The notes beneath the pieces were generated by a model. It was not told the origin of the DNA and searched no databases. It saw only the letters and a list, made by a program, of their open reading frames with translations. A stretch of 64,000 bases of DNA from Candidatus Saccharimonadales bacterium (GTDB taxonomy: Bacteria; Patescibacteriota; Saccharimonadia; Saccharimonadales; 2-12-FULL-41-12), in contig JBFIJM010000002.1 of the NCBI GenBank assembly GCA_041600715.1, positions 5,770-69,769 on the forward strand, read 5' to 3'. Positions 10,301-58,591 of the stretch are shown piece by piece. The position numbers and the translations under genes are program-made. Position 1 is the first letter of the stretch; every line of letters begins with the position of its first letter.

Positions 10301-12642
10301 TTATAGGAGACTCATCAGGAATGAAGACTATTAACGCCTTCAAGAGAGGTTTTGATGGGCAGTTGGGTATTATCTACTACGACAGAGGAATGAGGAGTGG
10401 ATCTGTTAACACCGAAGAAAAGCTAAAGATGCACATCCCATTTTATTCTGAAAAGGATGAAGACGGAAACCCATCTCCTCCAGGTGTTCCTGTTGTGTCA
10501 TGGGAGGTTAGACATAGACCACCATCTTGGGCTACTCATTGGCAGTGGGCTAGAACTAGGAATTTAACCGTTGGTAATTACCTTCAGTGGGCGACTGATG
10601 AAGTCACATACACCTTAGATGATGGGGTCACTCCATCTACCTTCCAATCAGGAAGCAGGGTGGTTTTGGGAGTATCCAACATAGCAACATTAAGAAATAA
10701 ATTCCCAAGCCTTGACTACGAATTAGGTCTTGATGACCCTGGAATGAGAGTTAGGTTTATTAAAAGGTATGACGGGCAAAGATACACCGAGTATCTTGAC
10801 TACCCACTACTAGAGAACTCTTCTCTTGGGCTTGTTATAGAGAAAGACTTTGCTCAGGGAGAGATAAAGGCAGGAACTCTTTTTGAGGTTTACAATGAGT
10901 TGCTAGACATTGAGGAAGAGATTTATTATGAGTTTGGAGAATGTTTCGAGGTAAAGCAAAATGTTTCAGGAATAAAATATCATGCAGGGCTGGCTCAAGA
11001 TCAAAACCCATTACTTCCGGCTTCAATACCAGCCACAGGAACCTTTAGGACGGGTGATGCCTACTATAGGCTAAGAAGTATGCCAAGAGCATTGGTTAAT
11101 GAGATTTCTTATATTGATGATGATGCAGTGTCAGACTTTTACCGTTCAGAGGTAGAGTCTATTGGACGAGCTAACGGGATAAATCCTGATGCCGCACAAT
11201 TATGGAAGCCTAATCAAATTAGACATAGTGGGAAGTATATTCCTGATTCTAAGGTGAACAACCTGAGTCAGTTCATATCTGACAGATTCCAACCACTACC
11301 TATAGAGTTTGGAGCTATTAATAAGCTACAGTTGGCTGCAAATGTTCTTATGTCAATACATGAGTTCAGATGGGTGTCCAACTATATCGAGGAAGCTATT
11401 GTTAGAAAGCAAGCAGGAGACGATGATATTGTGGCTACAACCTCTGTATTTGGTTCATTCAGAGCAGCAAAGCAAATAACGGGTACGGTGAACCAAGAGT
11501 CTGTAAAAGAGTACAGGGGAGCTATATGGGCATTTGACCTCAACAAAGGAGAGGTTTATCGTTGGGCTGCTGACGGCCTAACAGCCATATCTCAGTACAA
11601 GATGATTAATTACTTCTCCGACAAGTCTGAAGAAATACTGAGAAACAAGGATCTTGGAGAAAAGCCGTTTAGAGCTATCGGTGTTTACAACTCAAGACAT
11701 GATGAGTACATCCTTTCATTTGGAGAGATAGCTAAGAAGCCAACCGAAGATGTCCCTGTCGCACCACCACTACCTGAGTTTAGGTTTGCGCTTGATGTGA
11801 ACAACTCAGAGATAATTGAGGAGGCTTCAGACAACGCTCTATACACTATAAACGGAAGCAAGGAGTCAGGAAGCGTCTTCATACTTGATGAGGCTACAGC
11901 TCCAAACCTAAAGGGAGTGCAGATAGATAATCAGATAGGATCTGAAGGAGACCTTCTTGTTAAGGTTAAGAGGTTAGACGGAAGTATCGAGGAGGTTGTT
12001 AGACTAGAAGAGGGCCAGGGTATTGCAGACTTCAATATTCAAACAAGAAAGTTTAACCCTAAACCAAGAACTAACGATGCTCAGACTGTTCCGGCTCCCC
12101 AAGGGCAGATTCTTGTCTCAGGAGAGACTGTTGCCTTTAGTGAGAGGATTAACAAGTGGACTACGTTCTACTCGTTTAGACCTGAGATGTTCGGTATTAT
12201 AAGTTTAGAGATGATAGGATTCTCTGAAGGGAGATTATGGATACATAACGACAACGTAATAAGAAACAACTTCTACGGTGTTCAGTACCCTTCTCAGATA
12301 GAAGCCCTATTCAATCAAGAGCCTGGACAGGTGAAAGTATTTGAAGCTGTAGGTATTGAGAGCTACCATCCATGGCACGTACCATCAATGAAGACTCCTA
12401 ATGGAATGGAGACTCAAATGGTAGCAGGAAGGTTTGTTAGAAGAGAGGATAGCTACTTCTCTCCTGTTATGCGAGATATTAATACACCGAACTTTGGGAA
12501 TCAATTTAACGAGGCGATCCTTAATGGAAGGCAGCTAAGAGATAGAACAGCTACGGTATTGTTTCAGAATGATGAGACAGGAGAGGTTGTGCTATTCGCA
12601 TACAGCATGAAGAGCACCTTATCACCAAGACATCAAAAATGA
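7333..12642 (+). CDS. very large structural protein (1769 aa), function unknown (tail tube/nozzle analogue possible from position)
   Basis: Uninterrupted 5.3-kb ORF in the structural block. No enzymatic motif recognised. Confidence 0.8.
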   Translation: MPQYLEDKIPNNGMNRDDENRLVEKNEFRFALNLRGGSSDDDNIGTIENVKGTTEVTFDLPKGNNKVIGSHGDQTTNSNFFFLFNSLGNHTIYRYFPDTREIRILSRDSRWNFSEYDLINDINVIDGELLYFRDIENPPRKININKADNDNPDTRQVFHWYLGDDYLDGETTLDLVFTVQPERYSTAQVPQITETFTVLTPAPDEGKPEIARDLTEQINNGVANGSIALDIEAESCGEFVIITTTSPDYYTITALKGGFNTVMVVPQNHYIGYAERTIDVIKHPPHCELKAQIKTDEKFNRNYLSRKVFQFAARYIYDDDEKSTVDPYSIHIFNDSQCLQFSTPTLNNYIEIDLSVFPELLEPLELQTIRQIELFVRIGELGNWKSITTLEQYQFVDTANQHYDFYNNGRYNPVDQADFVRPFDLVPIRTKNMEIAKNRQFFGNNLEGYDNVCTDAKLDIDYDDVEARIKPPTYTIKGRIDIRAAFNGGFSGALKDHQPIWKDNIGGDDGPVTNPTVWGGIDNKPFKDFDMEDIAAKTGQILPLGGFVVYLAGTDYYGISKQKTGYSGLSDVGQDDNGVFVGSGGSYVDHVREYIIEEGTYGELFSTFEISNVPDGWYYLRVASHQTVQGDLDSGERGYQRTSTNAFQFVNPNFLSGGFTYIEEAGSRNEILVHVSAGNISNLQNIGISIMDLSYANKLGSTKILSGYVVDSDITGSISTYSEAIADTRISRALVTFDKSAATHHHFNTVVGGQPIPSDPINDWAYDYWLQEQEPGAATETDTRTDGTITDHNGFFFFASSQSMFKFPFISDGKLSIENIRPANDPSSIGQYNGVLYSQQGGTNSIKENSFAVVASRAPAGASNLNRTKVTGVIEDQNSLGIPKASIISSRTATHETDSTGEFEFFHYGILDRSGVIGGAGVSGASGAFKTLLFPSQSAGTCSASFSDSEIYNFNFDYPNWYVNNFSPDLTQGFSALVNSAPLTLDIAKFIGDSSGMKTINAFKRGFDGQLGIIYYDRGMRSGSVNTEEKLKMHIPFYSEKDEDGNPSPPGVPVVSWEVRHRPPSWATHWQWARTRNLTVGNYLQWATDEVTYTLDDGVTPSTFQSGSRVVLGVSNIATLRNKFPSLDYELGLDDPGMRVRFIKRYDGQRYTEYLDYPLLENSSLGLVIEKDFAQGEIKAGTLFEVYNELLDIEEEIYYEFGECFEVKQNVSGIKYHAGLAQDQNPLLPASIPATGTFRTGDAYYRLRSMPRALVNEISYIDDDAVSDFYRSEVESIGRANGINPDAAQLWKPNQIRHSGKYIPDSKVNNLSQFISDRFQPLPIEFGAINKLQLAANVLMSIHEFRWVSNYIEEAIVRKQAGDDDIVATTSVFGSFRAAKQITGTVNQESVKEYRGAIWAFDLNKGEVYRWAADGLTAISQYKMINYFSDKSEEILRNKDLGEKPFRAIGVYNSRHDEYILSFGEIAKKPTEDVPVAPPLPEFRFALDVNNSEIIEEASDNALYTINGSKESGSVFILDEATAPNLKGVQIDNQIGSEGDLLVKVKRLDGSIEEVVRLEEGQGIADFNIQTRKFNPKPRTNDAQTVPAPQGQILVSGETVAFSERINKWTTFYSFRPEMFGIISLEMIGFSEGRLWIHNDNVIRNNFYGVQYPSQIEALFNQEPGQVKVFEAVGIESYHPWHVPSMKTPNGMETQMVAGRFVRREDSYFSPVMRDINTPNFGNQFNEAILNGRQLRDRTATVLFQNDETGEVVLFAYSMKSTLSPRHQK

Positions 12643-15762: not shown

Positions 15763-18700
15763 ATGGCTACAGACAGCAAGACAAGATTGTTATACGATGC
15801 AGTTTCTAAGGATTATGATTTAGGAACATTTGAGGAGTTTGAGGCAAAACTACAGTCTCCTGATAAAAGGCAGGCTTTCTTTGATGGGGTTGGTGCTAGA
15901 TATAACCTTGGGTCATTTGAAGAATTTGAATCCAAGGTAAAAAAAAAAGAAGAAACTCAACCAAGAGATTTTTCAGCTCTTGCAGAAGGTATTGGGAGAG
16001 GTGTCGAAGCTCGTTCAAAAGCTATTCAAGAAGAACAAAAGGAAGTCCCACAAGAAGCCCAGCCTTTTCCAGAGCTTAGTGAAGAGAGAGACCTATCAAC
16101 TCCTGCTGCAAAACCTTCAAGGAGTATGTCTGGACTTGATTCACCTATTGAGGAAGTTGTCGAGGCTCCGGGTGAAGATTTACTTCCAACAGAAGTAGCA
16201 CTACCGTCAGAAAGCACATCAGTACAAGCCCCAATAATCCCTGAAGAACAAGCATTAGAAGGTGCAGACCCATTATTCATGGGGGGTGAGATGCTACGAA
16301 AGAAAGAAGAGGATATTGTTTCTAAGAGACAACAGAAGCTAAGAGAGGAGACGTTCAAAAGAACTATGAATATTGAGGGTCGAAGAGGATTCCCGATAGA
16401 AGAGGGCGACATCCCTAAGACTCAAGAGGAGCTTGACATCCTTAGTGGAGCAGCCAAGAACTACGAGATACTAATAACATCCAAACTAGAGGAGCACGTT
16501 CCTGAAGATTTAAAGTTAAAGGCTGCTTATGTTGAGAGAGAAAGAGAAATTATTAATCAAATAAAATCAGGAGAACTAAGTAAGGAAGATTCTACTAAGG
16601 CTAGGGCAAAACTTATTGAGATAAATAAGCAGTTGTTGTCGAGCGACAACAATAAGAAGCTGTTTAATCCTGTTACAGGAGAAACAGTGGATCAAGATAA
16701 GGCTCCTGTAGAAGCCATTGAGTATGATGGTATGGTTAAGAATCTTGTTGAGAACAAGTATTCAGACATAGAGGACGCATATCAAGCATCAGAAAAGGCT
16801 ATACACAAGTATGATTACTATGACGAGGAATTAGACAAGCCTTCTGGATACCTAAACTTAACATACAGAGACTTATCTGACCCTATAAAGAGAGCATCTC
16901 TACTAGCTAGTAATCAGTTCGTTGACGAGCAGATACTAGATAAATCCAAATTATTAAAGGAGAGATGGATAGACTCTAAGGCTAATGTAGAGGCTATTTC
17001 AAGAGCTATTATGGTGAATGAAGACCCATCTCAGATTGAGAGAGGTTTCGGTGGTGGAGCAGGATTTACTGAGAGCGTAGAGAAGGGGTTTATGGAAGCC
17101 ATTGATATGGGTGAGCAAGTAACGTCTACTGAAGGAGACTTTGCTACTCGGTTTGTCGGTGTTGTAAGAGATGCAGGAAAGGATAAGATTCTTACTAAGG
17201 CTCAAGTAGCTAACACCGAACAAGCGTTTGCTGAAAAATTAGGGTACGGAGTAGGAGCTTCTATTCCTATTATGGCAGAGATAGCAGTGACTACTGCCTT
17301 AACAGAAGGTATTGCTACTGAGGCTGTTGTAGCTAAAAACATAAAGAAAATCAAGGATGCTTTCGGAACATCTAAGGCAGGAAAGCTATTTGGGAACACT
17401 ATAGAGCAAGGAGTAAAAGGATATGCTTCTTTTGCCCCTACATCAGAGACAGGAGCCACAGGAGTTGGTGAGGGTGTTGCCCAGGGGGTGATGGATACCT
17501 TTCTACCTGAGAAGTTGATTGGAGGAAAGTACGGAAAGCTCCTTAACTACATAATAAGAACCGTTGGTGGGGGTACAGGGGAGACCATACAAGAGGTTTC
17601 AGGACAATACTTTGATGCACTAGCTGAAAACGGATATGATGCAAGAGGAGCGTTCTATGACGCTTTTGGAAGAACCCCTGAAGAGAGATGGGAGAACCTT
17701 GCGTTGATAGGGACCACATCATTAATGTTCTCGGGTGTATTCAATTCTGCCCGATTGGTTATGACTAAGGATGCCCTAGAGGAGGAGATTGAAAATGGTA
17801 ATATTCCGGAAGAAGATATTCCTGCTGCTCAGGAGATCATTAATACCATGGAGGAGAAGATTGATAGTGAAGAAGCTGCTGACACTCCAAAGGTTGCTCC
17901 TGTTGTTGAGGAGGAGGATGTTGCTGAGGAAGTAGCTCCTACCGAGGAGATACAGGGAGTTGTAGATGAGATTAAAGAGATTGATGCCAAGCTAGATGAG
18001 TCTAAGGGTGTGATGAAGAGTATTTTCCGTTCCACAAAGAAGGAGAAAGAACTTGAGGAATTATACAGTAAGAGACGTAAACTAGATGATAGGCTGTGGA
18101 AGGAGTTTGGTGAGGTCGCAACAAGTGAAGATTTTGATGAGGTTGACCGTTTAGCATTAGAGCTTGAAGAAGGAAAGGAGTCGGGTAAATGGTCTGAAAA
18201 AGAGATTGAACAGAAAAATAAAGAGTTATGGGATAAACGATACGAGCTTAGGGATTCGGTATTAGAAAGAACCATTAAGGAGAAAAAATCCGAACCTAAA
18301 GCAGAAGCACCAAAAAAGAAACCAACTAAAAAAACCAAAGAAGATGCCGTTCAAGAGCGAAAAACAGAGGAGGTTCCTGTACAGCCAGAAGCCCGAGTTG
18401 GCGAAGCAGTGGAGCCAGGAAGAAAAGTACAAGAAGAGGAAGTCGAACCTGTCAAAGAAAAAGAAGCCGAAGAAGCCAGAGGTGTGGTCGAGCCTGGTGA
18501 GGTCAAGGATATAGAAAGAAGAAGAAAAGACAGTTTGCATATTGTAACACAAGCAGACTTAGATAGAGGAGAAGATGTAGGAATTACAGAGAAGGATGGT
18601 CTATTTAGAGGAGACTATTATAGTAGTGCTGATGAGTATGGTAATGTACGAATAGCAAGTGTTATTGGTACTTTAAAAGAAGTACAAGATCATCTTAATG

Positions 18701-21700
18701 CTGAATATGATGCAGAATTAGCTTCTTTGGAATCTAGTGAAGTCAAGGGGAAACCAAAAGTTGAGGCTCCGAAAAAAGAAGCACCAAAGAAAGAGACAAA
18801 AGCCCCAAAAGCAGACCTTAAGAAGGTTGAAGAGGTAGAAGAGCCATCTAAGGCTCCTGCTAAGGAGTTTACAGTACAGGAGATCACTAAGGCTCCAAAG
18901 AAGATTGAAGGAAAATCTGCTTATGAATTTGAGGACACCGAAGGGAAGAGATATATTGTAGGTATTACTAGGGGAAATAAGAAGGTGTGGGTTGTATCTA
19001 GCAATGAGGATGGCTCTCTTCCTGACCCTGGAACACATAGAAGTGCTAAGGCTGCTGAAAAGTGGATGAAGGACAATGTAGGTAAGCCATTAAAAGAAGC
19101 TGCGCCTAAGAAAGAGGTTAAGAAGCCAATAAAACCTATTAAGATAAGTGAGGTATCTCCAGAGCCTAAAAAACCTGTAAAGGTTAAGCCTACGGAGCCT
19201 ACAAAACCTGCCAAAGAACAAAGTGTAGAGGCTCAGGAAATCTCAAATGAACTTTCGGCATTAAAAGATGAACACGCCAAACTTCTTGATGAAGGAAGAA
19301 AAGGTGGTGCTAATATAATCCTTAGTAAAAACCTTGCCAAAAAAGAGGCAGAAATAAAAAAGGCAGAGAAAGCTCTTAAGACTCAACTTACTAAGGATGC
19401 TAAAGCTGCCAAGAAAACAGCAGAAGCTCCAAAGAAAGAAGCTCCTAAGAAAGATTTACCACAAAAGATAGAAGATGAGGTGGCTCAGATTAAAAAAGAT
19501 AGAGCAGCCAAGGAAATAAAAGCGAAAGAAGAAAGGGAGGCAAGGAAAGAGGCTCAAAAGAAAAAGGCTGAGAAAAAAGAAGCTCCAACCAAGAGCTTGG
19601 TTGATGAAGTGAATAGGGTTGAGTCGGAGATTGAGTCTTATACGGCTGATATAGAGGATAAGCAAAATGAAATAAAAACAGAAAGAGAGAATTTAAAGGA
19701 TGAGCTTAAGACATTAAAAGACAAGAAGGATAAGATCAAGAAGTCCAAAATGTCTAAGGCTAAAAAAGAAGAGGCTCTTGAGGATGTTGATGCGGAGATA
19801 CAAGACCTAAAAGACGATACTGCTGACTTAATCGAAGTTTACAAGGATGAAGTGAAAGAGGCAAAATCAGAAATAACAAAGCTAAACAAGGAGAAAGGAA
19901 AGGTTGAGGCTGAAGTATCTAAGGCTTTAGAGGAGGCTAAGTCTGATAGCGAAAAGGTAGGAGATTTAATAGCTGAGGCTGAAAAGGAAGAGAAGGCTGA
20001 GAAAGCTGAGGTCGCCAAGAAGAAGACCCTAAAGAAGCCAGTAAAAGATACCAAGGAGTCTTTAATGGAGGATTTATCAAACATTGACCCTAGTGAAGCT
20101 CCATTTACTCTTTTTGCTAGAGCAAAAGGATTAGGTATAACTGATGATCCTGAATTTTCAAAAGCATATATAGAAAAAGCCAAAGCACATAGCAAGTATT
20201 CAGCAGAACAAAAATCTAAGGTGGACGAGGAAGAGGATGCTATATATGAGGATATAGAGGAAGGTGAGTTTGGTTTTGAAGAGGAGGATTTTGGGGAGTT
20301 ATTTGAAGGTGAAGACCCTTCTACACCAGAAGGGAAGGATTCAATCAAGAAGATGTTGGATGACTTAGATAATGACCTTAGAGATTTCGGAGAAGGAACA
20401 TTAGGGATGAATATGCCAGTCGTTGTTGCTAGGGCTATTGTGAAAGCAATGAAGGCAGCAGTAAGCACTGCAACCTCAATACTTGACATAATAAATGCAG
20501 GTATTAAACAAATGAAGACTACATCTTGGTATAAGAAGGCGAGCCCAAAAAATAAGGCTGCTGCCGTAGCAAACGTAGCTACTAATATAGGAGTAGCGAT
20601 AGATGAGACTAGACAAGTTAAAATACCGAACCCCCTCAATAAGTCTAAGCCTATTGTAATGACTATTCCTGAGTCCCTAGATGGGATGATTGATGCTTTC
20701 AACCAAAGGATAGTAGATAAGTTCTATGACATTAGGAAGGCTCAAAGATCTGTAGAGAAAAGAAAGGGAAGCGTATCTGATAAAGCTAACTTTGACAAGG
20801 CTGAAGTTCTTCTTCATGGTAAGGCATCTAATGACTTGAAAATATTTGAAGGAAAGGTTGAGAAGTTGGCTAAGGACATGGCTAAGAGAAATGTTAGTCA
20901 ACAAGAGTTGTCTGATTATATGTATGCTCGACACGCACAAGAAAGAAATGAATACATAAGAGACAATATTGACCCAAAGAATCATTCAGGATCGGGTATG
21001 ACAACTAGCGAAGCTAATGCTATCCTTAACTCACTATCACCTGAGCAGATAACAAACCTCGATGCCTTAGCTGACCAGGTATATGGATTTGCAGAGGACA
21101 CTAGGAATAATATGGTTAAGTTTGGTCTTTGGAGTGAGAAAAACGCAGACAACTTAAGGGGTCTGTACAATAATTACGTTCCTTTAATGGGATTCGATGC
21201 TGATGAAAGTTTCGGTAATGAATACATAGATTTAGGTCAGGCCTTATCTGTAAAAGGGAAAGAAGGGATGAGGGCTACTGGTAGAACAACAAAAGCTGCA
21301 AATGTAATTGCAAACATTATATCTCAGCACTCTAACAGTATAATTAGAGGAAGGAAGAATGAGGCCATGCAATCTTTACTATTCCTTGTTAAGGACAACA
21401 AAGAAATAGGTCATGTTATCCATCCTAAGATAAACCTAGACACCAAGAAAGGATTCAATTCTAAGGGAGAGCTTACGGATATTCCAATTAGACCAGAGCA
21501 GAATAAGAACTATGTTGGAGTTAAGATTGGTGGCCAGCAGTTTTATATAAAGTTCAAGAATGATAGAATGGCAAAGGTTGTTAACGCTGCCAACATAGAG
21601 AAGACAAACATCATCAATAAAACCGTTGGTAGATTCAATAGATTCCTTAGCTCCACAATGACCTCTTATAACCCTGAGTTCGTTCTTACAAACTTCTCTA

Positions 21701-23454
21701 GGGATATTCAGGCGGCAATGATTAATATGCTCTCTGAGTCTGACATAGCGAAAGATTCAGTTCAAGGAAAGAAGTTGATTGCTGACACATTAAAAAATGT
21801 AATGCCAGCTATGGGGTCTATCCTTAAGAGTGAGGTAGGCAAAAAGTCTAATAACCCCGAAATGGAGCAGTACTATGAGGAGTTTAAGGCAGATGGAGCT
21901 AAGACTGGGTGGTATCATGCAAAAGATTCTTCAGGTGTAGCTAAAGATATTCAAAACATAATAGCCCTACAAGAAGCAGGAACCTTCTCGCCAAGGCAAG
22001 CTGCAAAAGCCTGGAAGTCTACAAAGAATTTTGTCGAGGGAGTAAATACTGCTGTTGAGAACGCAGTTAGGCTCTCCACATACGTAAGTGCCAGGAAAAA
22101 TGGAGTAAGCAGGTCTGATGCGGCAGTTCTAGCTAAAGAGCTTACCGTAAACTTTAACAGAAGTGGAGAGTGGGGAACCGTAATGAACTCAATGTACTTA
22201 TTCTTTAACGCATCTGTTCAGGGTACTGCTAGGTTCGCAAAGGCAATGCTTACTCTGAAGAAAACAGTTAATGCTGATGGAGACACAGAGTACGGGCTGA
22301 ACAGGGGTCAGAAATTAGCAGGGGCTATGGTAGCCTTTTCCTCAATGCAAACATTAATAAACCAGGCTATATCTGATGATGATGAGGATGGGGAGTCTTT
22401 CTACAGTAAGATTCCTGACTATGAGAAGGAGAGAAATATGATTATAATGAATCCTAATGGTAGAGACTATTTTAAAATTCCGCTGCCTTATGGGTTCAAC
22501 ATTTTTAGTAACGCAGGAACTATGCTTACCGAGGTGTCAACAGGAGAGAGAGAGGTTGGTGATGGAACTCTATTTATGATAGGATCAATAATAAACTCAT
22601 TTGTTCCAGTTTCATTCTCTAGCAGTAATGATTGGGACAAGAAAGTTGTAAAAGGAGTTACACCGACTGTTATGAAGCCATTCATTGAGCTTGCCGCTAA
22701 TGAAGATTATTTCGGTAGTACAATATATAATGAGAATTTACCTTTCGGTGCTAAGAAACCTCAATCCTCTATAGGAAGGAGGTCAACGTGGAGTGGGTAT
22801 AAAGACTTAGCAGAATTTTTAAATGAAGCTACAGGAGGAAACGAATATGTAAGTGGAAAGATAGATATTAACCCTGATAAAATAGCTCACATCTTCAAGT
22901 TTATGTCTGGTGGTACAGGTAAGTTTGTAGGTAGAACAGTATCTAGTGCTGGGGTTGTTTTCGACAAAGCAAGAGGAATACCTTCTGAGCTTGAGATGAG
23001 AAAGGTTCCTTTCGCTAGGGTTGTATATGGAGAGCCTAGCAAGTATGTGGATCAGACTAGTTATTATGACCGAAGAGATGAGATTGGTCAGATAGCGGAA
23101 GAGTACAAAAACGCAACCTTCCAAGAAAAGAAAGACCCTAAATTTAAGGGGGTCAAGAACCTAGCAAACCTAATAAAGGTTACAGACAAGAAGCTGAAGA
23201 GTTTAAGGGCTAAAACAGACGCAGCTAATAACATGGAAGACCCTATAAAAAGAGCTATGACTCTTAATGATATAGAGAAAAAGGAGAAGACGACATATTC
23301 CAATTTCAATAGAGAGTATAATAAGTATTCTGAGAAAGAGAAAGTTAAGACTGTTTTCGCACCAAAAAGAGGGGGAAAATCATCAGGAGGTGGAAAAACA
23401 AAGTCTTCTGGGTATGGTTCAAGTAAAGATTTTAAATCCTCAAAAGGGTTTTAA
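15763..23454 (+). CDS. giant virion protein (2563 aa), putative ejection/internal (gp16-like or polyvalent) protein
   Basis: 7.7-kb uninterrupted ORF. Has a duplicated N-terminal Y-x-LG-x-FEEFE-x-K motif and about 600 aa of K/E/A/P low complexity (APKKEAPKK). The C-terminal ~1100 aa are of normal composition. Confidence 0.8.
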   Translation: MATDSKTRLLYDAVSKDYDLGTFEEFEAKLQSPDKRQAFFDGVGARYNLGSFEEFESKVKKKEETQPRDFSALAEGIGRGVEARSKAIQEEQKEVPQEAQPFPELSEERDLSTPAAKPSRSMSGLDSPIEEVVEAPGEDLLPTEVALPSESTSVQAPIIPEEQALEGADPLFMGGEMLRKKEEDIVSKRQQKLREETFKRTMNIEGRRGFPIEEGDIPKTQEELDILSGAAKNYEILITSKLEEHVPEDLKLKAAYVEREREIINQIKSGELSKEDSTKARAKLIEINKQLLSSDNNKKLFNPVTGETVDQDKAPVEAIEYDGMVKNLVENKYSDIEDAYQASEKAIHKYDYYDEELDKPSGYLNLTYRDLSDPIKRASLLASNQFVDEQILDKSKLLKERWIDSKANVEAISRAIMVNEDPSQIERGFGGGAGFTESVEKGFMEAIDMGEQVTSTEGDFATRFVGVVRDAGKDKILTKAQVANTEQAFAEKLGYGVGASIPIMAEIAVTTALTEGIATEAVVAKNIKKIKDAFGTSKAGKLFGNTIEQGVKGYASFAPTSETGATGVGEGVAQGVMDTFLPEKLIGGKYGKLLNYIIRTVGGGTGETIQEVSGQYFDALAENGYDARGAFYDAFGRTPEERWENLALIGTTSLMFSGVFNSARLVMTKDALEEEIENGNIPEEDIPAAQEIINTMEEKIDSEEAADTPKVAPVVEEEDVAEEVAPTEEIQGVVDEIKEIDAKLDESKGVMKSIFRSTKKEKELEELYSKRRKLDDRLWKEFGEVATSEDFDEVDRLALELEEGKESGKWSEKEIEQKNKELWDKRYELRDSVLERTIKEKKSEPKAEAPKKKPTKKTKEDAVQERKTEEVPVQPEARVGEAVEPGRKVQEEEVEPVKEKEAEEARGVVEPGEVKDIERRRKDSLHIVTQADLDRGEDVGITEKDGLFRGDYYSSADEYGNVRIASVIGTLKEVQDHLNAEYDAELASLESSEVKGKPKVEAPKKEAPKKETKAPKADLKKVEEVEEPSKAPAKEFTVQEITKAPKKIEGKSAYEFEDTEGKRYIVGITRGNKKVWVVSSNEDGSLPDPGTHRSAKAAEKWMKDNVGKPLKEAAPKKEVKKPIKPIKISEVSPEPKKPVKVKPTEPTKPAKEQSVEAQEISNELSALKDEHAKLLDEGRKGGANIILSKNLAKKEAEIKKAEKALKTQLTKDAKAAKKTAEAPKKEAPKKDLPQKIEDEVAQIKKDRAAKEIKAKEEREARKEAQKKKAEKKEAPTKSLVDEVNRVESEIESYTADIEDKQNEIKTERENLKDELKTLKDKKDKIKKSKMSKAKKEEALEDVDAEIQDLKDDTADLIEVYKDEVKEAKSEITKLNKEKGKVEAEVSKALEEAKSDSEKVGDLIAEAEKEEKAEKAEVAKKKTLKKPVKDTKESLMEDLSNIDPSEAPFTLFARAKGLGITDDPEFSKAYIEKAKAHSKYSAEQKSKVDEEEDAIYEDIEEGEFGFEEEDFGELFEGEDPSTPEGKDSIKKMLDDLDNDLRDFGEGTLGMNMPVVVARAIVKAMKAAVSTATSILDIINAGIKQMKTTSWYKKASPKNKAAAVANVATNIGVAIDETRQVKIPNPLNKSKPIVMTIPESLDGMIDAFNQRIVDKFYDIRKAQRSVEKRKGSVSDKANFDKAEVLLHGKASNDLKIFEGKVEKLAKDMAKRNVSQQELSDYMYARHAQERNEYIRDNIDPKNHSGSGMTTSEANAILNSLSPEQITNLDALADQVYGFAEDTRNNMVKFGLWSEKNADNLRGLYNNYVPLMGFDADESFGNEYIDLGQALSVKGKEGMRATGRTTKAANVIANIISQHSNSIIRGRKNEAMQSLLFLVKDNKEIGHVIHPKINLDTKKGFNSKGELTDIPIRPEQNKNYVGVKIGGQQFYIKFKNDRMAKVVNAANIEKTNIINKTVGRFNRFLSSTMTSYNPEFVLTNFSRDIQAAMINMLSESDIAKDSVQGKKLIADTLKNVMPAMGSILKSEVGKKSNNPEMEQYYEEFKADGAKTGWYHAKDSSGVAKDIQNIIALQEAGTFSPRQAAKAWKSTKNFVEGVNTAVENAVRLSTYVSARKNGVSRSDAAVLAKELTVNFNRSGEWGTVMNSMYLFFNASVQGTARFAKAMLTLKKTVNADGDTEYGLNRGQKLAGAMVAFSSMQTLINQAISDDDEDGESFYSKIPDYEKERNMIIMNPNGRDYFKIPLPYGFNIFSNAGTMLTEVSTGEREVGDGTLFMIGSIINSFVPVSFSSSNDWDKKVVKGVTPTVMKPFIELAANEDYFGSTIYNENLPFGAKKPQSSIGRRSTWSGYKDLAEFLNEATGGNEYVSGKIDINPDKIAHIFKFMSGGTGKFVGRTVSSAGVVFDKARGIPSELEMRKVPFARVVYGEPSKYVDQTSYYDRRDEIGQIAEEYKNATFQEKKDPKFKGVKNLANLIKVTDKKLKSLRAKTDAANNMEDPIKRAMTLNDIEKKEKTTYSNFNREYNKYSEKEKVKTVFAPKRGGKSSGGGKTKSSGYGSSKDFKSSKGF

Positions 23455-33750: not shown

Positions 33751-35340
33751 CTATTTACGCTCCTCTATTTCGGTGATAATACAGTTGCCCATAAGTATCA
33801 TACTAGCTACTGAGGAAGCATTATTTAATGCCGAAATCTCAACCTTAGCTGTATCTAGGATGCCACGTTCAATCATATCACAGTACTCTCTCTTGTTGAG
33901 GTCGTATCCTGACCCCTCTTCCCAATTAAGCACTCCATCAAGGATTACTTCACTAGGGAGCCCTGCGTTCTTCATTATCTGCTTTAATGGAGCATACAAG
34001 GCTTCTCTAACAATATCAATTCCTGATTGCTCACCTTTAGTCTTACCCTTCATCTTGTTCAACACCTTAGAGGCGTGAACTAGAGAGGAACCTCCCCCAG
34101 GAACAACCCCCATCTCAAGGGCAGATCGTGTAGCTGCAATAGCATCTTCAATTAAATCTTTCTTTTCTGCTACCTCACTTTCGGTAGCACCACCAACGTA
34201 GTACACTGCGATACCACCATCTATGTTGGCTAGTCTATTCTCTACCATCTCTTTAGCGTGAGGGTCTGACATCTCTTCAAGCATTAGCTTCACAGCCTTT
34301 ACTCTAGCGTTAATCAACTCCTTGTCTCCTCTACCACCGATAAAGGTTGTTGAGTGCCTGTTGATAACCACCTTATCAGCTTCTCCTAGCATCTCTAGGG
34401 TGCAGGACTCAAGATCAGTACCAACGGTCTCGCTGACCACTGTACCACCTGTAATTAGGGCTACATCTTCTAGCTCATCTCTCATGGAGCCTCCGTATCC
34501 TGGTGCATGAATACACGCCAAGGGAAGGTTAGCTTTGACCTTATTCTGAATGATAGTGGCAAGAGCCTCATTGTTAACGTCCTTAGCTATAATCAGTACT
34601 CCTCTTCCAGCTTTAGTTGCCTCTTCAAGGATATTGATTAGTGGAGCGATACCTGAGATTTGCTCATCATATAGTAGGATGTATGGGTTGGTTAGTACGC
34701 ACTCCATCTTCTCTGAGTTTGTAATGAAGTAGGGGGATAAGAATCCTCTATCAATCTTCATCCCTTCAACCACATCAATGTATGAGTCCATAGACTTGGA
34801 TTCGCTTACGGTTACTACACCATTCTCTTTTACCTTTTTGATGGCTCCTGCAATGTTCTTTCCTATCTCTGAGTTGTTGTTGGCTGAGATGGTGGCTACC
34901 TGCTCAATCATATTTGATTTTCGGTCTACCTTAACAGCCATTTTGTCGATAGCTTTGGTCACTTTAGCGACAGCAGCTTCAATACCTCTCTTGATGTCGG
35001 TACGGCTACTGCCTGACTCAATCATATTAACCCCCTTCTGAACAAGCTCTCTTGTTATCACACAATAGGTAGTTGTACCATCACCAGCTTCTTCTGCTGT
35101 CTTCTTGGCTCCTTCGATTAGTAGTTGAGCCCCTTGGTTCTCTTGAGCATCCTCTAGGATTACTCTACGTATTGAGTAGTACCCATCCTTAGTAACCTTT
35201 GGTGATCCATAGGGTTGTTGGATGATGGTATAGTTACCTTGTTGACCCATTGTCTCAGCTGCTACATTAGCTACTACCGAAACTCCGGATACAGATTTCT
35301 TTCTTGCTTCTGATTCAAATATTACCTTAGTCTTTATCAT
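33751..35340 (-). CDS. groL: chaperonin GroEL (Cpn60)
   Basis: 529 aa. PKVTKDG, ENQGAQLL and AGDGTTT match GroEL equatorial-domain signatures along the full length. There is no C-terminal GGM tail. Confidence 0.9.
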   Translation of the reverse strand: MIKTKVIFESEARKKSVSGVSVVANVAAETMGQQGNYTIIQQPYGSPKVTKDGYYSIRRVILEDAQENQGAQLLIEGAKKTAEEAGDGTTTYCVITRELVQKGVNMIESGSSRTDIKRGIEAAVAKVTKAIDKMAVKVDRKSNMIEQVATISANNNSEIGKNIAGAIKKVKENGVVTVSESKSMDSYIDVVEGMKIDRGFLSPYFITNSEKMECVLTNPYILLYDEQISGIAPLINILEEATKAGRGVLIIAKDVNNEALATIIQNKVKANLPLACIHAPGYGGSMRDELEDVALITGGTVVSETVGTDLESCTLEMLGEADKVVINRHSTTFIGGRGDKELINARVKAVKLMLEEMSDPHAKEMVENRLANIDGGIAVYYVGGATESEVAEKKDLIEDAIAATRSALEMGVVPGGGSSLVHASKVLNKMKGKTKGEQSGIDIVREALYAPLKQIMKNAGLPSEVILDGVLNWEEGSGYDLNKREYCDMIERGILDTAKVEISALNNASSVASMILMGNCIITEIEERK

Positions 35341-52414: not shown

Positions 52415-52440
52415 AACATTTCGGTGTTAATTAATAATTG
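52415..52440 (-). promoter_or_regulatory. short form of the leftward element
   Basis: Gene-sense sequence is CAATTATTAATTAACACCGAAATGTT-ATG. Confidence 0.4.
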
Positions 52441-52493
52441 TCCACTAATAGGGCATTGATCCCTCTGGTTAGTCATTCTAAACTAGTGGATAT

Positions 52494-52531
52494 AAAAAAA
52501 GGCCACAACTATTAAGTCGTGACCTTTTTTC
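52494..52531 (-). terminator. intrinsic terminator after gene 52543..53019 (A-run/T-run on both sides, possibly bidirectional)
   Basis: AGGCCAC (52500-06) pairs with GTGACCT (52519-25) with one mismatch. It is flanked by A7 and T6 runs. Confidence 0.5.
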
Positions 52532-52542
52532 TGATTGTGCTA

Positions 52543-53019
52543 CTACTTACCTAAATCAGCTTTCTTGTCCATCGCCTTTTGTTGTTTCTCAGCTTTGATG
52601 GCTCTCGCAGTGTTCAGGTCGTTCTTTTTCAGGATTTCGTTGCACATCAGTGCCACCTGATGAACGCTAACAAACGGCAAGTCCTTGTACTTGCTTTCGT
52701 CCTTGTGTAGGCACAGACTTTTGAAGCTGATTGCCTCCATTTGTTTCGGTGTTAAGACCTTCTTAGCTTGTGACACGTACCTTTTGAACGCTTGTGATAT
52801 TGTTACCGCGTCTAGGTGTACTAATCTACTTGCCTCTAATAGTCGGTCGTAGCTTCCTGCCTCCGCCTTATTGAAGTTCGCACTCTTCTCTGCTTTTAGC
52901 AAGATAGCCTTGCTTACCTTTGGTATTGCTACCTTTTTTGGCTCAGCCTTAGCCTTAGCCTTTTCTTGTGGTTTGGTAGCCTTGCTACTCTTCGCCACAC
53001 TCTTTCCAATTTTTGTCAT
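52543..53019 (-). CDS. Lys/Ala-rich N-terminus protein, first leftward early gene
   Basis: 158 aa. The N-terminal 45 aa are KAK-rich (histone-like composition). The gene stands alone between the long leader region and a terminator. Confidence 0.6.
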   Translation of the reverse strand: MTKIGKSVAKSSKATKPQEKAKAKAEPKKVAIPKVSKAILLKAEKSANFNKAEAGSYDRLLEASRLVHLDAVTISQAFKRYVSQAKKVLTPKQMEAISFKSLCLHKDESKYKDLPFVSVHQVALMCNEILKKNDLNTARAIKAEKQQKAMDKKADLGK

Positions 53020-54228
53020 TGGTTGCTCGTGCCTATTTCTAGGGCTTTATTGGTTAGCCAAAACCTCGGGGTTCGCTCCCGTCCAGACGGATCTGGGCCA
53101 AGTCTACTTGGAGGTTTCGGTATTAATAACTGATTGAATCTCAGGTTCTCTCATTCACCACAGTTAAGGGCATCACCTTGCATTTATTAGTCGGATGTAT
53201 TTTATTCGTCCGACGGAGGTACTTCTAATTTCCCTCCACACATTCGCATTTATTGTATTACACCCTAGACTCTCTCTAGGTTGCCGAATAGCCTTCGACT
53301 GCTATTCGTTCCCCTGTATCGGGGCGGAAGGCGCATCTTTTTACGCTATCTGATTTATAGTGCAGTTTTCACCGTTCAGAACCTCGTAGGGTATACTAGG
53401 GCATAAACCCACACCTATTAATGACATTTAACACTTTTCAAACGCAACCCCTCAAAGAAGGTAAAACAAAATTCAGTTTTAAGGTATAGAGCGCTTTTCC
53501 GTCGAATTTTTAATGTGGTACGGTTCCCACGGGTTTTTTACGCCTAATCTCGCTATGTCCCCACCTTACTAGTACTGTGCCTTTCAACTCTGTAGTGGCA
53601 TCTGCCTGATGACTCGCATCGTTTACTACTCAAGGCACTATATGTTTGTGCGGTTAATCAATTCGTGATGTGTTGTTGAATTGATAGTTCAAATGTATGA
53701 AAACTTATATGTATTTTCCAAGCACAAAATTTAAATCAGGTGTAAAGAATTGATTATCAGATAATTAAACTTGATATATAGCACTGGATTTAACCATAGA
53801 AAAGTTGTAATTAGGGGTAGAAACTAGGGAAATTCGAGGGGTTTATACACACAAAGCAACCCCATAAAAGGGGATATATAAGACAAGGGGCAAACAACCC
53901 CACCAACGCACACAATAATAGGTAACACATTCATTTACAGCACTTTAGTATAAAAGAATTGTCATATAATTAGAATTATGTTAAATAGAAGGGGCTAAAA
54001 ATATAGCTAATCCAGGTAAAGGATCACACGAGGTAACATAGGCTAACTCGCTGAAAAACAATCCCTTAAAAAATCGGGGGGTGGGGTAAAAAGAACGGAT
54101 TTCGTATCCCGTAGTCGCGCCCCCGGTTGTATAATATTACCCACCCCCCACATCTGCGTGAAAAAAAGGTGGCAAAAAGCTTGTTTTTATGAAAAGTAAA
54201 GTGTTACATTTGTACACTCATCACGACG
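53020..54228. other. 1.2-kb ORF-free, hairpin-rich divergent control region (candidate ncRNA/leader/origin)
   Basis: Apart from the 3' end of ORF 52871..53137(+), which I reject, no ORF-track entry of 60 aa or more lies here on either strand. Visibly richer in G/C runs than the flanks, with multiple stems (see findings). Confidence 0.55.
54205..54212 (+). promoter_or_regulatory. candidate -7 box TACATTTG for rightward early genes
   Basis: Exact TAnnTTTG 17 nt upstream of the ATG at 54229, with a TTG about 24 nt further upstream. Confidence 0.3.
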
Positions 54229-54471
54229 ATGGAGACAAACAATTGTGTTATTATGGGTATAAAAGAGCAAATATTGGATGAAATAGCGTTAAAGAAGCGT
54301 GTTCGGGGGTCCGGTGTTAATTTAAAGGCTATAGCTAAGGATACTGGTTTGAGTTATAACGGGTTGTTGAAGTGGCGTAACGAGCCTGAGAGGAGTATAG
54401 GTGATAAGAGCCTGGATAAGATAGCCAAGGCGTTGGGAAAGCGTATAATATTGATAAATCGGGATATATGA
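54229..54471 (+). CDS. Cro/XRE-type helix-turn-helix regulator
   Basis: 80 aa. LKAIAKDTGLSYNGLLKWRN...LDKIAKALG is a typical XRE HTH pattern. First rightward gene after the control region. Confidence 0.6.
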   Translation: METNNCVIMGIKEQILDEIALKKRVRGSGVNLKAIAKDTGLSYNGLLKWRNEPERSIGDKSLDKIAKALGKRIILINRDI

Positions 54472-54866
54472 GTGATTATGTAAAGGGCCAGGAGGATTTG
54501 ATAAAGCATATCAAGGATGGTATGGTTGACATTGTGAACACTACGACTGGATCAGCGATGTATGAGTCAATAATGGAGTTTTTGATGGCGTTGGAGCCTA
54601 TTGATGATTGGACTTTGTTTAAGACGGGCGAAGGTGAGGATGAGTCTAATCATTTGGAGTTGGATAGGGGTACTTATGAGTACTTGCGAGGGAGAGTTGC
54701 CGAAATAGTGGAGGAGTATGAGGAGGGGGGTATTATGTTGGTTACTGATAATGATCCTGAGAACATGAATATTCATGCCTGGGAATTTGCCTCGAAGAAG
54801 GGGTGGGAGTTCTCACTGATGATTGGAAAAAAGACTAAATGGAAGACATTCACCCCTAAAAACTAA
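54468..54866 (+). CDS. hypothetical acidic protein
   Basis: 132-aa ORF ending in ...FTPKN, encoded by the junction motif. Confidence 0.6.
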   Translation: MSDYVKGQEDLIKHIKDGMVDIVNTTTGSAMYESIMEFLMALEPIDDWTLFKTGEGEDESNHLELDRGTYEYLRGRVAEIVEEYEEGGIMLVTDNDPENMNIHAWEFASKKGWEFSLMIGKKTKWKTFTPKN

Positions 54867-54871
54867 ACAAG

Positions 54872-54979
54872 ATGATTGAAATATTAAGAGGAAGTATTTT
54901 TTTACAGATATTATTATTTGCGGTAATTTGTCCTGCTCTTATGGCTTATTGTGTGTATAAATCAAAACCTAAAAACTAA
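54872..54979 (+). CDS. 35-aa membrane mini-protein (below cut-off)
   Basis: My translation is MIEILRGSIFLQILLFAVICPALMAYCVYKSKPKN*. Bounded by junction motifs. Confidence 0.4.
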   Translation: MIEILRGSIFLQILLFAVICPALMAYCVYKSKPKN

Positions 54980-54983
54980 ACAG

Positions 54984-55094
54984 ATGGAAAATACAATTTT
55001 AATACTGCCGATTTTATGTATTTCTTGGAACGATGTAAACGAAAAAGAATTAACAATAGGATGGCTAACTTTTACTTGTACAATAAAATTTTAA
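54984..55094 (+). CDS. 36-aa mini-protein (below cut-off)
   Basis: My translation is MENTILILPILCISWNDVNEKELTIGWLTFTCTIKF*. Bounded by junction motifs. Confidence 0.35.
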   Translation: MENTILILPILCISWNDVNEKELTIGWLTFTCTIKF

Positions 55095-55112
55095 CCCCTA
55101 AAAACTAAACAG

Positions 55113-55328
55113 ATGGAAGAAACATTAGAGGATTTAAAGAGGGAGTATATGAAAGAAATATATATAGCAAATATTAAAATCCAAGCCCTCACCAAAGAGA
55201 ACGAAGAACTGAGGGAGGCAAGTAAGACGCTTTTAAGTTTATGCGACCTTGAGGACAATAGCGGTAGATTGGTTCATAAGGAGGCAGATAAAGAGATTTT
55301 AAGAAAACTTTTAACCCCTAAAAACTAA
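55113..55328 (+). CDS. KENEEL-motif mini-protein, paralogue 1
   Basis: 71 aa with ALTKENEELR and the C-terminus LLTPKN. Confidence 0.55.
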   Translation: MEETLEDLKREYMKEIYIANIKIQALTKENEELREASKTLLSLCDLEDNSGRLVHKEADKEILRKLLTPKN

Positions 55329-55332
55329 ACAG

Positions 55333-55587
55333 ATGGAAAGACCAAAAGACGAAGATTTTAGAAACAACGAAAGCGGAACAATCACATATTTATTTGCTCT
55401 TGAAAAATATTGTGATGCCCTAACCAAAGAGAACGAAGAGTTGAGGAAGGATAAGAAGAAAAACTCTGAACTTTGGTTGGAGGAAACAGAGCTAACCGAC
55501 CAACTAAAAGTAAGGGTTAAGGAGTTGGAGTGGGAGAACGATAAGCTAATAAAGATAACTAACAAACTTTTAACCCCTAAAAACTAA
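55333..55587 (+). CDS. KENEEL-motif mini-protein, paralogue 2
   Basis: 84 aa with ALTKENEELR and the C-terminus LLTPKN. Confidence 0.55.
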   Translation: MERPKDEDFRNNESGTITYLFALEKYCDALTKENEELRKDKKKNSELWLEETELTDQLKVRVKELEWENDKLIKITNKLLTPKN

Positions 55588-57910: not shown

Positions 57911-58591
57911 ATGATAGAAAGGATTCCGAAGAGTTATGTGTTGGTTGAGGTAGATTCCTTATTCCAAGACAAAATTCTTTTCCAAGACGGTAGAGAGCTA
58001 CACATAGACCCTACCTACGAACCAGAGAAACACCACCAAACTTCAGGCATAGTTCATACTGTGCCTGATTCTTTGCATTTTGACCTTAAGGACATGGAGT
58101 TCTCTATGGAGTACGATGTCCCTATTGAACTCAAAAAGGGAGACAAAGTATTCTTCCACTACCTACAGATCTCAGACGCTATAAAAAATAAGATGCTTCT
58201 TACCATAGAGGGTAAGCTGCATATCTTTGTTAGATACGACAGCTGCTTTTGTGCATTGAGAGAAGATGAGATGGTTATGCTTAATGGGTGGATGCTACTT
58301 GAACCTTTCGGTACTACCGAAGAACTGACCTCCAACGTAATTGACACTAAGCTACCCTTCCATAGGAGGAAACCACACCCCTTAAAAGGCGAAATAACCT
58401 CTATTGGAACCCCTGTAAAACAGTACTTATGGAACAAACATGAGTCAGATAAAAATATTAATGTATCTTTGGGTGACAAAGTTATGTTTCTACCCCACAG
58501 TGACATACCCCTAGAATACGGTTTACACCAGAAGTTAGATAAGGTTTACTACAGGGTACAACGTAAGGATTTATTAAACAAAATTTTATAA
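57911..58591 (+). CDS. possible tandem GroES-like (double Cpn10 fold) protein
   Basis: 226 aa with two halves that each follow a Cpn10-like order. First half: YVLVEV...SGIVHTVP...KKGDKVFFHY...IFVRYDSCFCAL. Second half: WMLLEP...KGEITSIGTP...SLGDKVMFLPH...YYRVQRKDLL. Confidence 0.35.
   Translation: MIERIPKSYVLVEVDSLFQDKILFQDGRELHIDPTYEPEKHHQTSGIVHTVPDSLHFDLKDMEFSMEYDVPIELKKGDKVFFHYLQISDAIKNKMLLTIEGKLHIFVRYDSCFCALREDEMVMLNGWMLLEPFGTTEELTSNVIDTKLPFHRRKPHPLKGEITSIGTPVKQYLWNKHESDKNINVSLGDKVMFLPHSDIPLEYGLHQKLDKVYYRVQRKDLLNKIL

Follow-up and report, generated by a model that had tools for sequence, protein, structure and literature searches.

What is encoded in a 1.2-kb interval that separates two divergently oriented genes and does not contain a gene itself? 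This question is raised by positions 53020 to 54228 of a 64,000-nucleotide stretch of contig JBFIJM010000002.1, deposited in assembly GCA_041600715.1 of Candidatus Saccharimonadales bacterium. The whole 64-kb stretch is called "the window" in the following. An original prediction, made from the letters alone, had offered a large structured RNA or leader, the replication origin, or an early promoter and operator hub as explanations. Its starting point was correct: no open reading frame (ORF) of 60 amino acids or more is located inside the interval on either strand. The left neighbor is the gene for p158 (52543 to 53019, minus strand), the right neighbor a helix-turn-helix (HTH) gene (54229 to 54471, plus strand). 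The interval is best explained as the divergent early control region of a tailed phage of about 70 kb with a Bacteroidota host. Nothing sets it apart as a promoter region, a large RNA is not supported, and it contains a well-supported and apparently under-described element, which had been overlooked. This element, a dif-like site for Xer recombinases at positions 53959 to 53986 in the AT-rich part, is the only deeply conserved element of the interval. Its sequence identity, conservation, distribution and the bias of its central region are matters of direct observation.

The 28-bp site on the plus strand is composed of two 11-bp arms, the XerC arm TTGTCATATAA and the XerD arm TTATGTTAAAT, separated by the 6-bp central region TTAGAA, and it possesses a partial inner dyad of ATAA and TTAT. 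The same 11-6-11 layout with an inner dyad defines dif (PMC5357621). In Escherichia coli, dif is GGTGCGCATAA-TGTATA-TTATGTTAAAT (PMC3025954), and the XerD arm in the window (53976 to 53986) agrees with that of E. coli in 11 of 11 positions. By its sequence, the 28-mer belongs to the dif-like Xer core sites. The window contains no second copy of it; it matches the pattern without a mismatch, zero matches are expected by chance, and the shuffled window did not yield a match even when three mismatches were allowed. A second XerC-arm-like sequence, ATTATCAGATAATTAAACTT, is present at 53753 to 53772 on the plus strand; it is 80% identical to 53958 to 53977 (repeat family D3) and is not followed by a XerD arm.

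Conservation of the site was evaluated with diverged relatives of the phage, which came from three sources: the p158 homologue, leading to L002 and L003 with a terminase 84% identical to that of the window; a metagenome scan with the terminase (L009 to L016); and terminase homologues (L017 to L024). Six genomes could be aligned across the divergent region (alignment A2); L030 to L033, from three terminase look-ups, did not reach a comparable divergent region. In all six aligned genomes, TTGTCnTATAA-N6-TTATGTTAAAT-AG is the strongest conserved box and nearly invariant, and the neighboring early genes of the relatives are 53 to 59% identical or cannot be aligned at all. Close relatives were found in IMG/VR neither with p158 nor with the terminase, and an alignment-based scan gave only relatives of about 33% identity. 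A collection of cultured phages contained no DNA match and only terminases with 33% identity or less.

The site is not restricted to this group of phages. At least 120 contigs of IMG/VR contain the core pattern TATAATNNNNATTATGTTAAATAG, compared to about 0.1 expected by chance according to our estimate. These matches represent 111 distinct contexts and 78 distinct 28-mers on contigs with a GC content between 24 and 61%, and they are almost always intergenic (inside an ORF of at least 80 amino acids in 10 of the 120 listed). Combined with the XerC arm of the phage, the pattern TGTCNTATAA-N6-TTATGTTAAAT has a single match in each of at least 120 species-representative genomes. Of the 80 titles listed, about 72 belong to Bacteroidota, among them Hymenobacter, Flavobacteriales, Bacteroidales, Chitinophagales, Sphingobacteriaceae and others. 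The consensus of the genomic sites is ttTGTCcTATAA-TTaATA-TTATGTTAAAT-agaa, and the XerC arm TTGTCATATAA fits the TTGTCYTATAA of these mostly Bacteroidota genomes. Judged by the single copy per genome and by the similarity, the genomic sites are evidently the chromosomal dif sites of Bacteroidota, and the phage evidently copies both arms of these sites.

Beyond Bacteroidota, the XerC arms of the viral sites follow the dif types of the host phyla, with GC-rich contigs carrying the proteobacterial arms AGTGCGTATAA, AGTTCGTATAA or ATTTCGTATAA. Such tracking across phyla can be explained only by a reader of the site that the host encodes. For the conserved box, a promoter, a hairpin promoter of the N4 type, a protelomerase site and a packaging end had also been considered; they were dropped because of this agreement of the arms with the dif of the host phyla. 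Exact copies of a host site, with the central region included, exist among the viral sites: the site ATTTCGTATAATGTATATTATGTTAAAT of the IMG/VR contig L144 is identical in 28 of 28 positions to the published dif of Nitrosomonas europaea.

The central region, however, separates viral from chromosomal sites. When only sites with arms of the Bacteroidota type are counted, under the same pattern constraints, a TTAATA or TTTATA center is present in 66 of 73 chromosomal sites and in 1 of 31 distinct viral contexts (Fisher p = 2.5e-18); the viral counts are not phylogenetically independent, although 13 different central regions are involved. In viral centers such as TTTGCA, TTACCA and TTAGCA, or the TTAGAA of the window, the TTW next to the XerC arm is mostly retained and the half next to the XerD arm is different. 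The clade of the window is diverse by itself, with TTAATA (L002 and L022), TTAACA, TTTGTA, TAAACA and TTAGAA. Strand exchange by Xer recombinases requires homology of the central regions of both partners. A private central region would allow recombination of phage with phage and disfavor full exchange with the chromosome.

What may the phage use such a site for? The preferred explanation, given about an even chance of being right, is recombination between phage copies by host XerCD, which would resolve multimers of a circular replicative or episomal form. With host XerC bound to the left arm and host XerD to the right one, two copies of the phage site would synapse and recombine. In this way, multimers of the replicating circular (or episomal) genome would become monomers, as is done by plasmid Xer sites. 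The non-host central region would keep the phage from productive recombination with the chromosome. The phage would thereby borrow host functions, because neither a recombinase of its own nor a recognizable DNA polymerase was found in the window. About 45 ORFs of the window were scanned with Pfam, PHROGs and NCBIfam, small ORFs and the 6.5 kb of the genome outside the window not included, and none of them was identified as an integrase, a resolvase, a partition protein or a DNA polymerase.

Alternatively, the site may be an attP, the attachment site of an integrase-less temperate phage that inserts into the chromosomal dif by XerC-catalyzed exchange, as does the filamentous phage VGJphi. Such integrative mobile elements exploiting Xer are known as IMEX, and the Cro/C1-like neighbor gene would then belong to a lysogeny switch. 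This alternative appears rather unlikely. It is favored by the canonical arms and by a center that keeps the XerC-proximal TTW and differs XerD-proximally, which is the layout of the VGJphi attP (PMC5357621): compared to TTAATA or TTTATA of the host, TTAGAA in the window is without homology on the XerD side, as in the definition of VGJphi-type attP sites. The double-stranded attP of VGJphi has this same central layout and integrates by XerC-only exchange (PMC5357621). In addition, no integrase was found among the about 45 ORFs scanned, the site is flanked by a repressor-like HTH gene and a divergently oriented gene, an arrangement known from Vibrio IMEXs (PMC12715192), and integration at dif-like sites has already been proposed for Bacteroidetes microviruses (PMC3091885).

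Traces of integration were nevertheless not visible. All 120 terminase homologues listed, those from NCBI assemblies included, are located on contigs of 78 kb or less, which argues against an integrated lifestyle. None of the window ORFs matched the DNA beside 120 chromosomal sites, and 1 of 952 ORFs from other site-bearing viral loci did so; that only 1 of the 120 chromosomal dif loci has a viral-like ORF argues in the same direction. This single locus is L214 of Epilithonimonas hominis, with the site at 1559 to 1586, an ORF of 51% identity to an IMG/VR ORF about 2.9 kb away and the atypical center TTTACA; it may be an element inserted at dif. Integrated relatives were not seen in a limited sampling, and no pair of attL and attR sites was found. 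Moreover, L002 and L022 carry the host consensus TTAATA, so that an integrated copy of these phages would be prone to excision by normal Xer recombination at dif. Since integration was searched for without being seen, the 28-mer was not assigned to the IMEX class. In its strongest form, this alternative would make phages of about 60 to 70 kb within the Caudoviricetes and across phyla integrase-less temperate elements that insert reversibly into dif via XerC-only exchange, with the mismatched XerD-side half of the center setting the direction of the reaction. This generalization is doubtful.

The ends of contigs need to be considered in this context. The 26.8-kb metagenome contig L009 (positions 1 to 31, corresponding to 4194 to 4224 of L010) ends 1 nt outside the XerC arm, and L010, which comes from another sample and is 99.99% identical, continues through the site into the leftward genes. 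Among the viral loci that represent whole contigs, 4 of 35 start within 51 nt of the XerC arm, compared to about 0.26 expected by our estimate. Both results may be quoted in favor of the site as an attP, and both hint at alternative junctions at the site. A genome terminus or terminal repeat at the site was kept only as a minor possibility on the basis of the enrichment of contig ends in other groups, since most contigs of the clade (the window, L001, L002, L010, L022 and L024) read through the site. Circularization via terminally repeated copies is consequently the use ranked lowest, after multimer resolution and VGJphi-like integration. Five IMG/VR contigs of one phage group (L045, L065, L082, L139 and L147) all start 8 to 57 nt from their own site.

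Several points weigh against multimer resolution by host XerCD. A lytic phage that packages its DNA from concatemers has no obvious need of dimer resolution, and the end of L009 hints at alternative junctions. The combination of a kept XerC-proximal half and a diverged XerD-proximal half of the center is a hallmark of VGJphi-type integration as well (PMC5357621), and the counts of viral central regions are not phylogenetically independent. The XerC-side flank is not conserved among the six relatives at the place where plasmid sites have accessory sequences of about 180 bp, and the 6.5 kb of the genome outside of the window could encode a recombinase. Xer recombination has not been studied in Bacteroidota (PMC3091885). 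Finally, Xer binding, catalysis and the biological role of the site are inferred.

Comparison with known Xer systems places the phage site between established categories. It shares the 28-bp 11-6-11 architecture with chromosomal dif, with a XerD arm like that of E. coli and a XerC arm of the Bacteroidota type, but it is located inside a promoter region of a phage genome and has the center TTAGAA instead of TTAATA or TTTATA. The plasmid sites cer of ColE1 and psi of pSC101 borrow host XerCD in the same manner by a dif-like core with a center of its own, and they serve as the proposed working model. On the XerC side of psi, an accessory sequence of about 180 bp is bound by PepA together with ArcA. 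The accessory sequence of cer, likewise about 180 bp on the XerC side, is bound by PepA with ArgR (PMC5357621). The phage site differs from both in that its XerC-side flank is not conserved, that the conserved boxes are located on the XerD side and that the hosts are Bacteroidota. It was not assigned to the cer/psi type because a XerC-side accessory region is missing.

With the attP of VGJphi-type IMEXs, the phage site has in common the canonical arms, the mismatch on the XerD side and an adjoining repressor-like gene; an integrase was not found among the about 45 ORFs of the window that were scanned. Known IMEX phages, however, are small, non-tailed and found integrated at dif, whereas the phage described here is tailed, about 70 kb in size, encodes GroEL, a terminase and an SU10-type capsid protein, and, like its relatives, was not seen integrated. 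A tailed phage with a tyrosine-recombinase site is P1, whose Cre/loxP system resolves dimers and can circularize the DNA. P1 encodes this recombinase itself, whereas host enzymes would be used in the present case. Sites similar to dif are already established on plasmids (cer, psi and pdif) and on small non-tailed phages, namely, CTXphi, VGJphi, TLCphi, the proviruses of Bacteroidetes microviruses, gokushoviruses and double jelly-roll vibriophages. The literature searched contained no report of Xer sites on large tailed phages and no paper with the motif in a relevant context.

Is the dif-like site part of a larger functional unit? Alignment A2 splits the interval into positions 53020 to 53690 without a counterpart and positions 53940 to 54228 with sharply conserved boxes. 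Five of these boxes are located on the XerD side at 54058 to 54162 (plus strand): AACAATCCCTTA (54058 to 54069), GGGGGGTGGGG (54076 to 54086), CCCCCG (54121 to 54126), ATATTACCC (54132 to 54140) and ATCTGCGTGAAA (54151 to 54162). Their columns are conserved in A2, and they are absent from other viral contigs with a dif-like site. Two of the five build the long-range stem of about 13 bp that had been predicted from the sequence. This stem exists in the genome of the window, but its pairing is not kept in the relatives, and covariation was absent from all predicted pairs. The G-run and C-run were rejected as a conserved hairpin of RNA or DNA, as the runs were kept and their register was not, with zero compensatory pairs. 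The clade boxes were read as DNA boxes instead.

On the other side of the site, a cluster of GGGG and CCCC runs with the repeated GCAACCCC..AAA extends from 53810 to 53906 (repeat families D1 and D2). It contains two terminator-like hairpins on the minus strand at 53901 to 53887 and 53875 to 53859, and L010 and L024 have comparable G/C-run hairpins on this side of their dif-like sites. These features lead to the question of a replication origin, in which AT-rich DNA, the G/C-run repeats and early transcription would open the DNA or prime its replication next to the dif-like site. In ColE1-type plasmids, cer is located near the origin. The phage has a gene for a primase/helicase-like protein and no recognizable polymerase, so that an origin served by the host would be needed. 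The block from 53650 to 54050 is AT-rich with a GC content of 0.25 to 0.41, the GCAACCCC..AAA motifs are repeated, and several other site-bearing viral contigs have iteron-like arrays of GACC or AATCG beside the site. The cumulative GC skew, proposed earlier as a way to find an origin, has its minimum at about 53650, but this is also the switch of the coding strand and not independent evidence. The repeats are short and few, neither an initiator gene nor an array of DnaA boxes was identified, and nothing in the region is specific for an origin. An origin at this place is improbable.

The interval, described earlier as richer in G/C runs than its flanks, is not GC-rich overall. Positions 53001 to 54000 have a GC content of 0.396, compared to about 0.40 in the whole window, and only 53000 to 53650 is coding-like in composition (0.36 to 0.51).

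Of the three explanations, the early promoter and operator hub was supported: both TAnnTTTG boxes were found where the relatives have divergent promoters. TAnnTTTG is the −7 box of the Bacteroidota sigma-A, and predicted promoters of this type are present upstream of both genes, although the motif is frequent, with 71 occurrences in 64 kb. Both TACATTTG boxes of the original prediction were confirmed. The leftward box (53690 to 53697, minus strand) is the only minus-strand TAnnTTTG between 45566 and 58484, and equivalent boxes precede the first leftward gene in L002, L024 and L010. The rightward box (54205 to 54212, plus strand) is located upstream of the Cro/C1-type HTH gene and aligns with GTTACATTTGTA in L002 and L019. 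Both boxes are parts of one inverted repeat (I6).

Three copies of GAATTGAT, at 53657 to 53664 on the minus strand and at 53678 to 53685 and 53747 to 53754 on the plus strand, bracket the leftward promoter. Within these 98 bp are 3 of the 5 copies in the 64 kb, compared to about 0.006 expected, although the motif (inverted repeat I22) was noticed post hoc. The trio may be a candidate operator, possibly for the adjacent HTH protein.

Does the leftward promoter produce a structured RNA? The start site was inferred from the position of the −7 box, which results in a non-coding 5' leader of about 665 nt on the minus strand from 53685 to 53020, followed by the ATG of p158 at 53019. The long untranslated leader postulated before is thus predicted in the window as well, with 670 nt between box and ATG, but it is private to this genome: in the relatives, the boxes are only 74 (L002), 51 (L024) and 49 nt (L010) away from the ATG. 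Hidden coding capacity, a pseudogene or an alternative genetic code was ruled out. In a leader stretch of 681 nt, 9 to 18 stop codons per frame were counted, about the random rate in all six frames, no reassignment of a single stop codon opened any frame, and tblastx against the relatives gave no result. The region is therefore genuinely non-coding.

A functional structured RNA between 53020 and 53690, such as a riboregulator, an antiterminator or a processed non-coding RNA (ncRNA) transcribed from the leftward promoter, would be in agreement with the position of the leader between a good promoter box and the first gene. All stems quoted in the original prediction were located again, and "hairpin-dense" was correct with respect to one segment and to terminator-like hairpins, 6 of which were found in the region compared to 1.9 ± 1.5 expected. 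Among sliding folds of 120 nt, only 53180 to 53380 exceeded dinucleotide shuffles in stability, with minus-strand z scores from −3.1 to −4.4 and plus-strand z scores from −1.5 to −4.6. According to the minimum free energy structure and reading of the sequence, this segment contains the hairpins GUCGGA/UCCGAC, GGAGG/CCUCC, CCUAG/CUAGG and CCCC/GGGG, in addition to the two mutually exclusive helices GCCUUC/GAAGGC and CGAAUAGC/GCUAUUCG. The 3' end of the leader can form a cloverleaf-like four-way junction at about 53104 to 53040.

The remaining results are less favorable. Windows starting at 53300 to 53780 had z scores around 0, so that the prediction of dense hairpins did not hold there, and the fold of the complete 681-nt leader was weak with z = −1.8 on the minus and −1.6 on the plus strand. 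For about 450 of the 665 nt, folding was not better than in shuffled sequences. The covariance models of Rfam 15, among them those of large phage-associated RNAs, riboswitches, ribozymes, tRNA and tmRNA, gave no match at the gathering score, only noise at E ≤ 10 in the region and nothing at E ≤ 1 in the window, and ARAGORN identified neither a tRNA nor a transfer-messenger RNA (tmRNA) in the region; both checks for known RNAs, recommended by the original prediction, thus ended empty. No counterpart of the leader exists in any relative recovered, and no similarity was found among about 150 related or site-bearing loci, hence neither conservation nor covariation. This was the outcome that the original prediction itself had named as speaking against its RNA. 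A functional structured RNA is accordingly quite unlikely, and the leader should be regarded as a private 5' untranslated region (5' UTR), idiosyncratic to this genome, and not as a conserved RNA gene.

Two relatives bear a different long non-coding element beside the homologous gene, and long ncRNAs seem to be tolerated or used at this place, which speaks for an RNA in the window to some extent. Each element opens with a type-P1 twister ribozyme directly after the p158 homologue or its positional equivalent, at 10478 to 10547 on the plus strand in L002 (E = 6.9e-10, 49.8 bits) and at 2651 to 2716 on the minus strand in L024 (E = 4e-11, 53.9 bits), both below the Rfam gathering score of 67.2, and continues for about 650 to 700 nt without ORFs. 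The element of L002 closes with a terminator hairpin (11236 to 11270), followed by a 90-nt tRNA-like gene (11284 to 11373, plus strand), which ARAGORN reported as tRNA-Lys(ttt) with the anticodon at position 29 and the Rfam tRNA model as a match below threshold (E = 0.009, 25.5 bits). In the window, Rfam did not find a twister. At the position of the twister of the relatives, directly after the p158 stop codon, the window has a very stable hairpin instead (52420 to 52545, minus strand; AGGUCAC...GUGGCCU, z = −6.4), which is flanked by an A-run and a U-run and is terminator-like in both directions.

Homology of the leader to the twister-linked elements was rejected because BLAST and collinear k-mer chains did not exceed shuffled controls, and this result also weighs against a functional RNA. 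A motif common to both, GAAATTAGAAGTAC...GAATAAA, was likewise rejected after a scan of IMG/VR gave only chance matches in coding sequences. A hint of shared ancestry comes from 53303 to 53290 on the minus strand, where AGTCGAAGGCTATT followed by CGGCAA agrees in 12 of 14 positions with AGTCGAAAGCAATT...CGGCAA, the start of the 5' UTR directly after the leftward −7 box in L002 and L024. By this similarity, the sequence may be the relic of an ancestral 5' UTR start inside an enlarged leader.

The genome around the interval is that of a tailed phage of a Bacteroidota host, with TAnnTTTG promoters of the Bacteroidota type. The NCBI contig has 70,548 bp. The window encodes a large terminase, 27 to 33% identical to terminases of Flavobacterium and Cellulophaga phages, tail and tail-fiber proteins, GroEL, a Cpn10-like protein, a C5 methylase, the primase/helicase-like protein, an exonuclease, a holin, an M15 peptidase and a giant protein of the virion type with 2563 residues. 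An SU10-type major capsid protein is present in the relatives and on L274, a Logan contig of this phage. The identical Logan contig L001 reads through the region. The HTH gene belongs to the Cro/C1 type (Pfam HTH_26, E = 2.8e-5, and HTH_3), and p158 had no match in Pfam, PHROG, NCBIfam or PDB.

The gene for GroEL is located at 33751 to 35340 on the minus strand (PHROG, E = 3.4e-139), and that for the protein with the Cpn10-like C terminus at 57911 to 58591 on the plus strand; in 21 of the 120 IMG/VR loci listed, a GroEL homologue is located within a few kilobases of the dif-like site. About 900 C-terminal residues of the giant protein (15763 to 23454, plus strand) match PHROG families of proteins with 2800 to 3900 residues and no assigned function, in addition to a weak DarB-like antirestriction match. 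Downstream of the HTH gene, the small plus-strand ORFs at 54468 to 54866, 55016 to 55108, 55113 to 55328 and 55333 to 55587 share the C terminus ...TPKN, and KENEEL(R/K) is a motif common to several of those between 54468 and 55587, suggestive of tandem paralogues. In this run, the Logan assembly of the phage is interrupted, with L001 ending at 54959 and L274 starting at about 55926.

With the dif-like site, a defined 28-bp element replaces the vague label of a "structured RNA or origin" in the annotation of this interval. If the site is functional, widespread tailed phages, represented by at least 120 IMG/VR contigs with a GC content of 24 to 61%, would rely on host XerCD for monomerization or for integrase-free lysogeny. 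A general rule that large tailed phages across several bacterial phyla bear a dif site mimicking that of the host, and use host XerCD instead of a recombinase of their own, appears rather unlikely. Should the site serve as an attP, the IMEX lifestyle would be extended from small non-tailed phages to the Caudoviricetes. For a functional site, the XerC arm could predict the host phylum of uncultured phages, since this arm follows the host dif, and predictors of prophages or lifestyles that depend on integrases would misclassify such phages. The bias of the central region would provide a testable rule for how an element keeps apart from the chromosome of its host or engages it.

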